From the NCBI RefSeq assembly GCF_055900595.2, contig NZ_CM148325.1: a DNA stretch of 64,000 nt, one strand, 5' to 3'. The translations under genes and the position numbers were made by a program. Below the pieces are notes generated by a model that was not told the DNA's origin, did no database searches, and saw nothing but the letters and a program-made list of their open reading frames with translations. Positions 17,467 through 61,183 of the stretch are shown in pieces; position 1 is the first letter of the stretch; every line of letters starts with the position of its first letter.

Positions 17467-17467
17467 G

Positions 17468-17785
17468 CATCCGCGCACGCCAGCCGGATGCGGCGTGAAC
17501 GCCTTATCCGCCTACATTTCGCCCATAAACCGTAGGCATGATAAGACGCGCATAGCGTCGCATCAGGCATCTGCGCACAGCTGCCGGATGCGGCGTGAAC
17601 GCCTTATCCGCCTACATTTCGCCCATAAACCGTAGGCATGATAAGACGCGCATAGCGTCGCATCAGGCATCTGCGCACAACTGCCGGATGCGGCGTGAAC
17701 GCCTTATCCGGCCTACATTTCGCCCATGAGCCGTAGGCATGATAAGACGCGTCAGCGTCGCATCAGGCATCTGTGCACGGCTTAT
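17468..17785. repeat. BIME cluster: three tandem ~102-bp units of REP palindromes
   Basis: Unit GCCGGATGCGGCGTGAACGCCTTATCCG...GCATCAGGCATCTGCGCAC repeated three times with point differences. Confidence 0.85.
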
Positions 17786-19724: not shown

Positions 19725-19818
<94 letters not shown>

Positions 19819-58408: not shown

Positions 58409-59791
58409 TCAACCTGCCACACTCCCCCACACCATTTGCCCTTTATGGAACGTTGCGGTTCTCGGCGAGATACGCGCCACCGCCTCGGCGGAACAGGAGG
58501 CGTCCACCAGCACAAAGCTGGCGTCATCCTGCGCTTTAGGCCAGACGCGCTCGCCTTTTTCGTTGAGCGGCAATACATCACCAGTGGCTAAAAACAGCGA
58601 GCGGGACAAATTCTGTTCGTTAGGACGAATATAGAGCTGCGCGTACAGATTGGCTTTTTCCAGCATGTCGCCCAGGCCGTAAGGCGACCAGTGGTCGATA
58701 ACGCTGTCGGTGCCGGTCATCACTTTTACGCCTTTGTCGTGCAGCTGTTTGAGCGGCATATGCAACGTGCCAATCGGCACCGTCGAGGCGATCGAGATTT
58801 GCTGCGCCGCCATCCGGTTCGCCAGTTCATCTACTTGTTGCTCGTTGAGGGTAGCCAGCGCAAAGGCGTGGCTGATGGTCAGCTTGCCTTTTAGCTGCGG
58901 CGTTTTCTCCACTGTTTCAACCATATAATTGATGGCTGCCACGCCCGCCGGAGTGGTTTCGTGCAGATGAATATCGACGCCTTTGTCGTAGTCCAGCGCA
59001 ATCTGGAACATGGTGTCGAGGGATTTTTCCATCGCGCCATCAACACTGGTCGGGTCCAGCCCGCCGACGTAATGCGCGCCTGCCTGCATTGCTTCACGCA
59101 TCAAGGGTTCCGATTTCGACAGCAGCAAACCGTGCTGCGGGAAGGCGACGATTTCACACTCGAAGCCCGCCTGACGTCGCGCCAGCACCGCCTGCAAATT
59201 TTGCAGATTTTTCAGGCCGGAAACCGGTTCGATATTGCAGTGGCTGCGGGCAATGGTGGTGCCTTTCGACTGCAATAAATCGATCAGTTTTTCTGCCCGC
59301 TCCTGCGTGTAGGGTTGCAGTTCCGGCAGCATTTTTTGCTCGAGTTTGATCATGTCCTGGATAGTGGTGCCTGCCGGGCGATTGAGCGAGCGCCACGGCC
59401 CACCGTAAAAGGTTTTGTCGAGATGAATATGCATGTCGCGGGTGGTGGGCAGCATCAGCTTACCGCCAGCGTCATAGTGCGGCAGCGTGGCGTCCGGATG
59501 CTGCTTGTTCTCGCGCAGCGCGACAATTTTGCCGTCCTGAATCTCCACGGTCTGGCGCGCCGTGCGGGTCTGCACCGCCACGCCATTTTCATAGTCAAAA
59601 CCGGTTTCCAGCAGCACGTTGTCGAGATAGTAGTGCGGGTCAGTGATTTTCATGGTGTTATTCGCGTCGCAGTGGGTGGTGCCAGAGACCTCCGCATGGG
59701 CGAATGGCACAGAGGTACCAAACAGCGCGGCGGCGGTGACCATCTTACCGCTCTGGCTCAAAAACTCACGACGGCTATTGTTTTCTTTCAT
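58409..59791 (-). CDS. yahJ: Amidohydrolase-family deaminase with twin-arginine (Tat) signal peptide
   Basis: 460 aa; N-terminus MKENNSRREFLSQSGKMVTAAALFGTSVPFAHA carries an SRREFL Tat motif. Confidence 0.8.
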   Translation of the reverse strand: MKENNSRREFLSQSGKMVTAAALFGTSVPFAHAEVSGTTHCDANNTMKITDPHYYLDNVLLETGFDYENGVAVQTRTARQTVEIQDGKIVALRENKQHPDATLPHYDAGGKLMLPTTRDMHIHLDKTFYGGPWRSLNRPAGTTIQDMIKLEQKMLPELQPYTQERAEKLIDLLQSKGTTIARSHCNIEPVSGLKNLQNLQAVLARRQAGFECEIVAFPQHGLLLSKSEPLMREAMQAGAHYVGGLDPTSVDGAMEKSLDTMFQIALDYDKGVDIHLHETTPAGVAAINYMVETVEKTPQLKGKLTISHAFALATLNEQQVDELANRMAAQQISIASTVPIGTLHMPLKQLHDKGVKVMTGTDSVIDHWSPYGLGDMLEKANLYAQLYIRPNEQNLSRSLFLATGDVLPLNEKGERVWPKAQDDASFVLVDASCSAEAVARISPRTATFHKGQMVWGSVAG

Positions 59792-59800
59792 CTTACGTCC

Positions 59801-60751
59801 TTACGTTTTAATAATATGGGTGCCCGTCTCGCCACGCAGCGCCGCGGGCAGGCATTCCGGCGTGGTGATAATCACTTCTTTGCCGCCCTGTTCTAAAAAT
59901 GTCAGGCTGGCGATGATTTTTGGCAACATGCTGCCAGGCGGGAAATGCCCTTCCTGCATATAGCGGGTCATGGTGGCAATATCCACCCGATCCAGCGCCT
60001 GCTGCTGCGGTTTGCCAAAATGAATACAGACTTTTTCCACGCCGGTGGTGATCACCAGAATGTCGGCGTGAATTTCGCGGGCCAGCAGCGCGGTGGAGAG
60101 ATCTTTGTCGATAACCGCGTCCACGCTTTGGTAATCTCCCGCGTCAGTACGCACCACCGGAATTCCGCCACCGCCCGCACCAATCACCACAAACCCTTGT
60201 TGGATCAGCGCTTTAATGGCAGGTGCTTCAACAATACGTTTCGGTTCCGGCGAGGCGACCACGCGGCGATAGCCGCGTCCGGCATCTTCAACAAAACGCC
60301 AGTCAGGGTTTGCCTTTTGTAATTCGTTACGCTGGCTTTCACTGAAGAATGCGCCAATGGGCTTGGTGGGGTGAGCAAACCCCGGATCGTTTTTATCCAC
60401 TTCCACCTGAGTCACCACAGTGACGGCTTTTTTCTCGCCGTGGCGCGCCAGCCGATTGTTCAGCGCCTGTTGGATCAAGTAGCCAATGCCGCCTTGCGTA
60501 TCTGCCACACAGTTCGCCAGCGGCGTTAAGGGCAGCCCTTCGCGCTCGTGGGCAATCTCCGCACGGCGTAGATCCAGCCCAACCTGCGGCCCGTTGCCGT
60601 GGGTCAGCACAATGTCGTAATCGGAAGCCAGCATTTCCAGCACCGTCTCGGCGACGGCCTTCACCGCCTCCGCCTGATGCTCAATCGACTGGCTGGCGTT
60701 ATCTTTGATAATGCTGTTGCCACCAATGGCAACGACCACAAGTTCTTTCAT
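59801..60751 (-). CDS. yahI: Carbamate kinase-like protein
   Basis: 316 aa MKELVVVAIGGNSIIKDNASQS... amino-acid-kinase fold. Confidence 0.85.
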   Translation of the reverse strand: MKELVVVAIGGNSIIKDNASQSIEHQAEAVKAVAETVLEMLASDYDIVLTHGNGPQVGLDLRRAEIAHEREGLPLTPLANCVADTQGGIGYLIQQALNNRLARHGEKKAVTVVTQVEVDKNDPGFAHPTKPIGAFFSESQRNELQKANPDWRFVEDAGRGYRRVVASPEPKRIVEAPAIKALIQQGFVVIGAGGGGIPVVRTDAGDYQSVDAVIDKDLSTALLAREIHADILVITTGVEKVCIHFGKPQQQALDRVDIATMTRYMQEGHFPPGSMLPKIIASLTFLEQGGKEVIITTPECLPAALRGETGTHIIKT

Positions 60752-60801
60752 GTTGTTATGTCCGCTACAGAGGGTGATGGGGTTATGACCAACGCCAGAC
60801 A

Positions 60802-61160
60802 GCCTGATGCGCTACGCTTATCAGGCCTACAGATTCTTGTGCCATTCGTAGGCCGGATAAGGCGTCCACGCCGCATCCGGCAATGGTGACAAATGCCTGA
60901 TGCGCTACGCTTATCAGGCCTACAGATTCTCGCGCCACTCGTAGGCCGGATAAGGCGTTCACGCCACAACCGGCAATGGTGACAAATGCCTGATGCGCTA
61001 CGCTTATCAGGCCTACAGATTCTTGCGCCACTCGTAGGCTGGATAAGGCGTTCACGCCGCATCCGGCAATCGTGACAAATGCCTGATGCGCTACGCTTAT
61101 CAGGCCTACAGATTCTTGCGCCACTCGTAGGCCGGATAAGGCGTTCACGCCGCATCCGGC
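60802..61160. repeat. BIME cluster: four tandem ~92-bp units
   Basis: Unit GCCTGATGCGCTACGCTTATCAGGCCTACAGATTCTTGCGCCACTCGTAGGCCGGATAAGGCGTTCACGCCGCATCCGGCAA repeated four times; track ORFs 60748-61263 and 60783-61205 run through it. Confidence 0.88.
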
Positions 61161-61183
61161 AGAGACAACGCGCACTTTGCAGG

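Follow-up and report, generated by a model that had tools for sequence, protein, structure and literature searches.

REP and BIME arrays have been under study since the 1980s. In the classes of Gilson and Bachellier as summarised by Ton-Hoang et al. 2012 (PMC3333891), BIME-2 elements consist of y and z2 REPs in multiple tandem copies with short linkers, whereas BIME-1 elements combine z1 and y REPs, are present as a single copy and possess a long L linker, in which an IHF site is often found. The Y1 transposase TnpA-REP cleaves and recombines BIMEs in vitro and was proposed as the source of their copy-number and linker variation (PMC3333891). In RNA, REP hairpins act both as a barrier against 3′ exonucleases and as attenuators, the latter in a Rho-dependent manner when untranslated (PMC12306157, PMC4765031); the intercistronic REPs of malE-malF and hisJ-hisQ stabilise mRNA (Newbury et al. 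1987, cited in PMC12306157), and REP-induced ribosome stalling and translational down-regulation require less than 16 nt between stop codon and REP (PMC12306157). In DNA, BIME-2 elements are enriched in gyrase cleavage sites, mainly in their y REPs and independently of transcription (PMC6379681). The REP325 array gives rise to naRNA4, an HU-associated RNA, HU binding and nucleoid condensation being known for REP325 only (Qian et al. 2015, PMC4550694). The locus considered here has been described as well: between yahG and yahI of EHEC, Neuhaus et al. 2016 (PMC4765031) characterized X002 as a five-block REP23/BIME element and noted that yahH had been dropped from the annotation on account of this REP23/BIME structure, and in the y-ome review of 2024 the entry reads “yahH (filled with REP23 sites)” (PMC11551758).

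The window, i.e. the whole analysed stretch of 64,000 nucleotides of contig NZ_CM148325.1, is part of an E. coli chromosome, and its segment 59800-62200 is 100% identical to NZ_CP098223.1 of strain Z0117EC0005. RefSeq annotates that record at the locus as fdrA, yahG, “hypothetical protein”, yahI and yahJ, on one strand throughout, which defines the following arrangement in the window.

61184-62602, minus strand: yahG (DUF1116 / YlbE / AllG-family), the upstream gene, from its ORF and the RefSeq annotation of the identical record
60802-61161, no strand: BIME-2 array of four y/z2 REP pairs with a period of 93 nt (“REP23” locus of K-12), from Tandem Repeats Finder, 93-nt direct repeats and REP typing
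59801-60751, minus strand: yahI (carbamate kinase family), the downstream gene, from its ORF and the RefSeq annotation of the identical record
58409-59791, minus strand: yahJ, from the RefSeq annotation of the identical record

Within the fdrA-yahG-yahI-yahJ string, the yahG stop and the yahI start are separated by a spacer of 432 nt (60752-61183). The array takes up this spacer and leaves 23 nt between the yahG TGA and the first y stem base and 50 nt between the last z2 stem and the yahI ATG. An earlier sequence-only reading of the window had placed it between two co-directional genes, and both the ORFs and the annotation put yahG and yahI on the minus strand. Tandem Repeats Finder reported 60802-61161 as one tandem array with a period of 93, 3.9 copies, 95% matches, 0% indels and a score of 664, and an independent repeat search returned three 174-nt copies in register at a spacing of 93 nt and with 94–100% identity. 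Since only two arrays with a score of at least 80, the present one included, were found by the tandem repeat scan of the whole 64-kb window, this periodicity lies far beyond chance. The periodicity check proposed in the sequence-only reading came out clearly, and its coordinates 60802-61160 agree with ours to within one nucleotide of 61161; its unit of approximately 92 bp has to be replaced by a period of 93. The array length of 360 nt corresponds to 4 × 81 + 3 × 12 nt, comprising eight REPs and three inter-unit linkers.

On the minus strand, which is the transcribed one, every unit consists of a y REP of 35 nt (TGCCGGATGCGGCGTGAACGCCTTATCCGGCCTAC), a linker of 17 nt (GAGTGGCGCAAGAATCT), an inverted z2 REP of 29 nt (GTAGGCCTGATAAGCGTAGCGCATCAGGC) and an inter-unit linker of 12 nt (ATTTGTCACCAT). 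From the yahG to the yahI side the components are the following.

61127-61161, minus strand: y REP 1, closest to yahG, TGCCGGATGCGGCGTGAACGCCTTATCCGGCCTAC, exact y consensus, RNA hairpin of −21.3 kcal/mol
61110-61126, minus strand: linker of 17 nt, flanked by the CTAC and GTAG ends, GAGTGGCGCAAGAATCT, from the unit alignment
61017-61033, 60924-60940 and 60831-60847, minus strand: further copies of the 17-nt linker, from the unit alignment
61081-61109, minus strand: inverted z2 REP 1, GTAGGCCTGATAAGCGTAGCGCATCAGGC, exact z2 consensus, hairpin of −11.5 kcal/mol; its plus strand holds the IS621 target ATCAGGCCTAC
61069-61080, minus strand: inter-unit linker of 12 nt, ATTTGTCACGAT, corresponding to “l” in the naRNA4 model, from the unit and model alignments
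60976-60987 and 60883-60894, minus strand: further copies of the 12-nt inter-unit linker, from the unit alignment
61034-61068, minus strand: y REP 2 with one stem mismatch (CCAGCC), from REP typing, hairpin of −15.1 kcal/mol
60988-61016, minus strand: inverted z2 REP 2, from REP typing and folding
60941-60975, minus strand: y REP 3, variant GCCGGTTGTGGCG, from REP typing, hairpin of −16.9 kcal/mol
60895-60923, minus strand: inverted z2 REP 3, from REP typing and folding
60848-60882, minus strand: y REP 4 with the loop variant GTGGAC, from REP typing, hairpin of −21.3 kcal/mol
60802-60830, minus strand: inverted z2 REP 4, closest to yahI, from REP typing and folding

Four z2 REPs (plus strand) and four y REPs (minus strand) alternate in inverted orientation; five of the eight match their consensus exactly, and each deviates from it by 0–2 substitutions. 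All are imperfect palindromes of the 30–40-nt REP type with GTAG at the foot, end in CTAC or GTAG, and fold into hairpins with an internal mismatch and energies between −11.5 and −21.3 kcal/mol. An inverted-repeat search of the array returned 0 pairs, as the REP stems fall below the seed and length thresholds of that search; the palindromes were seen by folding. A CRISPR-like or coding-repeat organisation was also considered and ruled out, as the units abut, the linkers are conserved and there are no unique spacers.

With alternating y and z2 REPs, multiple tandem copies (period 93, 3.9 copies), linkers that are short as judged on their length (17 and 12 nt) and on the absent IHF consensus, an extragenic site wholly inside the yahG-yahI spacer and a copy number that differs between strains (0, 1, 2, 3, 4 and 5 units), the array corresponds to the BIME-2 family as found, for example, at sucC-sucB and tldD-yhdP, which it resembles in REP types, alternation, short linkers, tandem copies, intergenic position and copy variation. 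Gyrase cleavage has been demonstrated for BIME-2 elements at these other loci (PMC6379681), whereas the yahG-yahI array is placed in the family by sequence. We consider it very probable that the array is a non-coding BIME-2-type REP array of four tandem 93-bp units at the REP23/“yahH” locus of K-12, and the four tandem BIME units, each with paired REP palindromes, that were recognized in the sequence-only reading are borne out by Tandem Repeats Finder and REP typing as four y/z2 pairs. K-12 REP23/yahH lies at the same place between yahG and yahI, and has the same 93-nt y/z2 unit, the same two open frames and likewise four units. In contrast to the window, however, its spacer measures 421 instead of 432 nt, its yahG-side flank 13 instead of 23 nt, its last unit carries a 1-nt linker deletion, its linker variants are differently arranged, and it contains the upstream ATG start of K-12 YahH that is missing from the window; the flanking genes share only ca. 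95% nucleotide identity. The X002 locus of EHEC EDL933 contains five units compared to four in the window.

The copy number at the yahG-yahI locus was compared using spacer sequences from seven further genomes, which, together with the window, cover the following alleles.

0 units: spacer of 95 nt in SCU-105, with no REP and an unrelated 58-nt segment in place
1 unit: spacer of 142 or 153 nt in M6 and EC9682
2 units: spacer of 246 nt in AHB18
3 units: spacer of 328 nt in XH993, and of 329 nt by span in Nissle 1917
4 units: spacer of 421 nt in K-12-like strains, and of 432 nt in the window
5 units: spacer of 514 nt in O157-like strains

In two spread samples of a ranking of about 5,400 complete genomes, which comprise 36 and 54 locus-bearing rows and are therefore estimates rather than a full census, one unit was found in ca. 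40–45%, four units in ca. 30%, no unit in 11–13%, and two, three or five units in ca. 6–8% each. The strain-variable unit number anticipated by the sequence-only reading is consequently found as a range of 0–5 units in the fetched spacers and the two samples. The yahG-side flank occurs as two alleles of 13 nt (K-12, O157, M6, XH993) and 23 nt (window, AHB18, EC9682), and because each of them is seen with several copy numbers, gains and losses of units must have recurred. By analogy with other REP systems, these might proceed by unequal recombination, by slippage or by the REP-associated Y1 transposase TnpA-REP. As approximately half of the sampled strains contain no or one unit, the four-unit state is dispensable, and any influence on regulation could be minor or neutral. 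Within a small sample of 20 units from 7 strains, 17% of the columns are variable in the y REP and 7% in the z2 REP compared to 47% in the 17-nt and 42% in the 12-nt linker, only 4 of 44 paired stem columns vary, and a frame-breaking 1-nt linker deletion recurs in 4 of the 20 units. The REP palindromes are kept while the linkers vary.

The sequence-only reading had also pointed out two long ORFs at 60748-61263 and 60783-61205 and had attributed them to the repeat. Both are present, with 171 and 140 codons for amino acids, respectively, and the reading frames across the array are as follows.

60783-61205, minus strand: repeat-derived ORF of 140 aa, in the repeat frame of RefSeq “protein YahH”, from the ORF list
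60783-61148, minus strand: PGAP “hypothetical protein” within the 140-aa ORF, with a GTG start in the loop of y REP 1, from the RefSeq annotation
60748-61263, minus strand: repeat-derived ORF of 171 aa, in the repeat frame of EHEC “X002”, overlapping with the 3′ end of yahG and the start of yahI, from the ORF list

The peptides VAQESVGLISVAHQAFVTIAGCGVNALSGLR and LIRPTSGAR are examples of what the open frames of the array would encode.

Matches to the naRNA4 model of Rfam (RF02564) were obtained on the plus strand with 75.8, 71.5 and 70.0 bits compared to a gathering score of 59.5 (E-values of ca. 1e-13 to 2e-12).

60851-60920, plus strand (antisense to the operon): RF02564 match above the gathering score
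60944-61013, plus strand (antisense to the operon): RF02564 match above the gathering score
61037-61106, plus strand (antisense to the operon): RF02564 match above the gathering score

These frames and matches raise the question whether the array encodes a protein or an RNA. A true coding gene yahH, whose repeat protein would be made from the operon mRNA perhaps beside roles of the DNA and RNA (“triple function”, Neuhaus et al. 2016), would account for the two open sense frames of 140 and 171 aa, for the persistence of “protein YahH” in the RefSeq/PGAP annotation of K-12-like and O157-like strains and of a hypothetical protein in the record identical to the window, and for the ribosome footprints on EHEC X002 (RPKM 56, coverage 0.61, ribosomal coverage value 0.64), from which the authors infer translation (PMC4765031). 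The open frames, however, are expected from the repeat itself. The period of 93 nt equals exactly 31 codons, so that a frame open in one unit is open through the entire array, and openness in one unit is likely by chance: at least two open frames were retained in 62% of shuffled single units, compared to 0.2% of shuffled 360-mers of equal composition. In sense orientation, two of three frames run through the array free of stops, and all three frames of the plus strand contain them; in the second BIME array of the window, with a period of 100, every frame is interrupted by stops. Moreover, the candidate starts are not conserved and comprise the ATG of a linker variant, a GTG within the loop of a hairpin and an ATG inside a y REP, all located in or near hairpins, and no Shine-Dalgarno sequence was found upstream of any ORF start in the array. 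The 98-aa RefSeq YahH of K-12 and O157 is read in the same frame as the 140-aa ORF of the window, from an ATG created by the linker variant GAATGG; as the 17-nt linkers of the window read GAGTGG in the first three units and GAATGG only in the last, this start is missing there and PGAP selected the GTG in the y REP 1 loop. The 465-nt ORF matching published X002 (L009 1532-1996) uses the other frame (MRRERLIRPT...), and a 1-nt deletion within block 4 makes it shift frame, which implies that two distinct “YahH” proteins from different frames of one repeat go under one name. The ORF is missing or tiny in the ca. 50% of strains with 0–1 unit. Across the 20 units of the small sample, frame-breaking 1-nt deletions recur and the variable columns are distributed over the codon positions as 6, 6 and 9 without an excess at the third, variation thus following the anatomy of REPs and linkers and not codon position; neither a conserved combination of frame, start and ribosome-binding site nor a coding-type substitution pattern without frameshifts is observed. 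No Pfam family reached its cut-off with the array ORFs. In the NCBIfam scan, SidA was the sole match above cut-off, and it was ruled out as their family because it is a partial match of 13 residues summed over the repeats. Table 1 of PMC4765031 contains no mass-spectrometry peptides for X002, and, as we infer, structured REP RNA could resist nuclease without ribosomes. A genuine yahH protein is therefore very unlikely. The best explanation for the array ORFs is that they arise as by-products of a tandem repeat that stays in frame, which is the majority view but a contested one, and the CDS that RefSeq places at the array, named “protein YahH” or “hypothetical protein”, can almost certainly be regarded as such a by-product, although incidental translation may occur; the attribution of the long ORFs to the repeat in the sequence-only reading is upheld by the 31-codon period, the shuffles, the unconserved starts and the linker-centred variation.

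The three RF02564 matches, together with the y/z2 tandem arrangement between two genes that REP325 also displays (PMC4550694), would be compatible with units that act as naRNA4-like genes for y-l-z2 two-hairpin ncRNAs, with the HU binding and bridging of cruciform DNA that have been reported for REP325. The window units resemble REP325 as tandem y-l-z2 array between two genes and pass the gathering score of the covariance model, but only on the plus strand, which is not the transcribed one as deduced from gene orientation and promoter scan; in operon sense, on the minus strand, they score 47–53 bits and stay below 59.5, whereas the REP325 RNA is transcribed from the promoter belonging to the upstream gene. 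The lone promoter-like site on the plus strand near the array (60685-60712) is at chance level (one found, 0.4 expected). In addition, the second hairpin of the model is 7 nt longer than the z2 hairpin of the window, which aligns to it with 7 gaps, the REP pairs are separated by a 17-nt linker in place of the “U” motif of REP325, and ca. 12% of strains lack the array. RF02564 also matches the other BIMEs of the window at 17.5 and 19.7 kb and fits any y-linker-z REP pair, so that a match marks a BIME unit and not a naRNA4-type function, and we regard this role as highly improbable. An IHF-binding BIME-1/RIP-type element bending the DNA between yahG and yahI, IHF binding being one option offered by the sequence-only reading, would share with the array the inverted REP pair including the y REP, and in some E. 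coli BIMEs of this type the long L linker does contain an IHF site (PMC3333891). However, the array contains z2 instead of z1, linkers of 17 and 12 nt instead of the long L motif, and tandem units instead of a single copy. The IHF consensus WATCAANNNNTTR is matched six times in the window, but never within the spacer 60752-61183; at the array no site with at most one mismatch is present, the best local matches having two. With IHF sites belonging to the L linker of BIME-1 (PMC3333891), the IHF option is refuted at the sequence level and such an element is extremely improbable. Finally, the array might chiefly serve as a transcription stop that splits yahG and yahI into separate transcription units and leaves the expression of yahI to a promoter of its own, as suggested by the Rho-dependent attenuation reported for untranslated BIMEs (cited in PMC4765031 and PMC12306157) and by the 432-nt untranslated spacer, which is long for an operon junction. 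This is unlikely, because neither an intrinsic-terminator-like site (stem plus T-run) nor a sigma-70-like promoter was detected on the minus strand by a scan of 60400-61600, because EHEC data treat yahD-J as a single operon with a transcript across the array (PMC4765031), and because the 0–1-unit alleles retain both the gene order and the 37–50-nt yahI leader unchanged. On the plus strand of the same segment, one promoter-like and one terminator-like match were found, both at chance level. Partial attenuation at the array is possible and already included in the explanation that we prefer.

According to this preferred explanation, a non-coding BIME-2 array transcribed as part of the operon, the sense RNA would present eight local hairpins, for which span-limited and per-REP folds predict −15.1 to −21.3 kcal/mol for the y and −11.5 kcal/mol for the z2 REPs. 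The whole-spacer fold is more stable than that of shuffled sequences (z-score −4.97), its long-range inter-unit pairings and near-empty centroid being uninformative on architecture, for which reason the span-limited and per-REP folds were used. In analogy to other REP loci, the eight hairpins in the polycistronic transcript might block 3′-to-5′ exonucleases and/or cause partial attenuation, and either effect would favour yahG and the genes upstream over yahI-yahJ. Like the REPs of malE-malF and hisJ-hisQ, the array lies between co-transcribed genes at a position suited to shield the upstream message from 3′ exonucleases; the stabiliser role of those REPs is experimental and involves 1–3 hairpins, whereas that of the eight hairpins between yahG and yahI is inferred from these and other REP loci. 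REP-dependent translational down-regulation could apply to the 13-nt flank of K-12 type but not to the window, whose 23-nt flank exceeds the 16-nt limit. In the DNA, the y REPs may in addition act as a transcription-independent gyrase site; gyrase binding at the yahG-yahI array is plausible from the published BIME-2 data only, and the supplement text of the gyrase Topo-Seq paper (PMC6379681) does not mention yahG, yahH or yahI.

A more far-reaching scenario considers the yahG-yahI spacer as an evolvable “rheostat”, in which the unit number (0–5) and the distance from stop codon to REP (13 or 23 nt) set the ratio of yahG to yahI-yahJ and the alleles are under lineage-specific selection rather than neutral; in a radical variant, one or both repeat frames would be translated into functional peptides. 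The two flank alleles of 13 and 23 nt do straddle the published stalling limit of less than 16 nt (PMC12306157), and we nevertheless judge this scenario decidedly unlikely.

The array DNA is also a target of IS621. The natural target of this element is ATCAGGCCTAC (PMC11208160), and four of the five exact sites in the window are located inside the array. In strain 7.1994/NIST0056, a 1,279-bp IS621 is inserted at the same locus directly after ATCAGGCCT of a z2 REP. With its four exact target sites, the array constitutes a natural landing pad for the bridge-RNA recombinase IS621.

The REP23/yahH array is real, was correctly read in its essentials from the sequence and is already contained in the literature, so that it adds little new biology. 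The main value of the present analysis lies in annotation and tool hygiene, as the repeat-inflated SidA match of NCBIfam and the naRNA4 match of Rfam could mislead automated pipelines. For the biology of BIMEs, the allelic series of 0–5 units combined with two stop-to-REP spacings offers a system suited to measuring the effect of BIME copy number on operon polarity.

The yah locus that carries the BIME-2 array is, by sequence comparison, an unusually divergent allele for E. coli. The yahJ, yahI and yahG genes of the window strain (58409-62602) share only ca. 95% nucleotide identity with those of K-12, at 98-99% amino acid identity, and only 14 of the 5,581 matching records reach at least 99% identity over 59800-62200.

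The spacer between yahG and yahI occurs in several alleles. A REP-free form of 95 nt, exemplified by SCU-105 (L008 400-494), is found in ca. 12% of the sampled genomes; here, the array is replaced by an unrelated 58-nt segment holding a CCCTTCTCCC...GGGGAGAGGG hairpin, and this spacer is not a clean empty site. The distance between the yahG stop codon and the first y REP is 23 nt in the window (61162-61183), AHB18 and EC9682, and 13 nt in K-12, O157, M6 and XH993 (compared in the fetched sequence L001, 2861-2873). These two alleles fall on either side of the limit of <16 nt within which a REP is reported to make ribosomes stall at the stop codon (PMC12306157).

Strain 7.1994/NIST0056 (L003 1453-2873) carries within the same spacer a 1,279-bp copy of IS621, a bridge-RNA recombinase element, which is inserted exactly 3' of ATCAGGCCT in a z2 REP. 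The natural target of IS621 is ATCAGGCCTAC (PMC11208160), which is present in five exact copies in the whole window, four of them inside the yahG-yahI array.

IS621 target copies in the array (window coordinates)
60820-60830, exact match to ATCAGGCCTAC
60913-60923, exact match to ATCAGGCCTAC
61006-61016, exact match to ATCAGGCCTAC
61099-61109, exact match to ATCAGGCCTAC

The window contains a second BIME array.

Second BIME array (window coordinates)
17467-17782, between the convergent genes fghA (frmB) and yaiL, period 100, 3.2 copies

REP typing revealed y and z1 REPs in this array, which is therefore of the "atypical BIME" kind. At this site the record of strain Z0117EC0005 (NZ_CP098223.1), which is 100% identical at yahG-yahI, is one 100-bp unit shorter than the window; the extra unit implies that the two are either very close relatives or different assemblies. 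BIME copy number thus varies even between sources as near as these.

The Rfam naRNA4 model (RF02564) also scores above its gathering threshold at 17535-17713, within the fghA-yaiL array, and at 19740-19816, a REP pair between mhpE and mhpT. In practice, what it detects is the y-linker-z REP pair in general. A sigma-70-like match (TCGACT-16-GATAAT, 9/12) lies at 60685-60712 (+), antisense inside the 5' end of yahI, ca. 90 nt upstream of the array and in the orientation of the naRNA4-matching strand; with one match found versus 0.4 expected, it provides no promoter signal above chance.

The RefSeq "protein YahH" and the published "YahH/X002" are two separate reading frames of one repeat.

Reading frames named YahH (coordinates in L009, the sequence carrying the X002-matching ORF)
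1669-1965, RefSeq "protein YahH", 98 aa, ...AGCGVNALSGL... frame; window counterpart 60783-61205
1532-1996, "YahH/X002", published as translated, 465-nt ORF, MRRERLIRPT... frame; window counterpart 60748-61263

The repeat ORF 60783-61205 (-) scores 45 bits (cut-off 35) against the NCBIfam equivalog NF033228, a 29-position model of the cell division inhibitor SidA. An identity as SidA is rejected as a false positive because the score is a partial match of 13 residues added up across the repeats. Such a match to NF033228 on a repeat ORF could misdirect automated naming.
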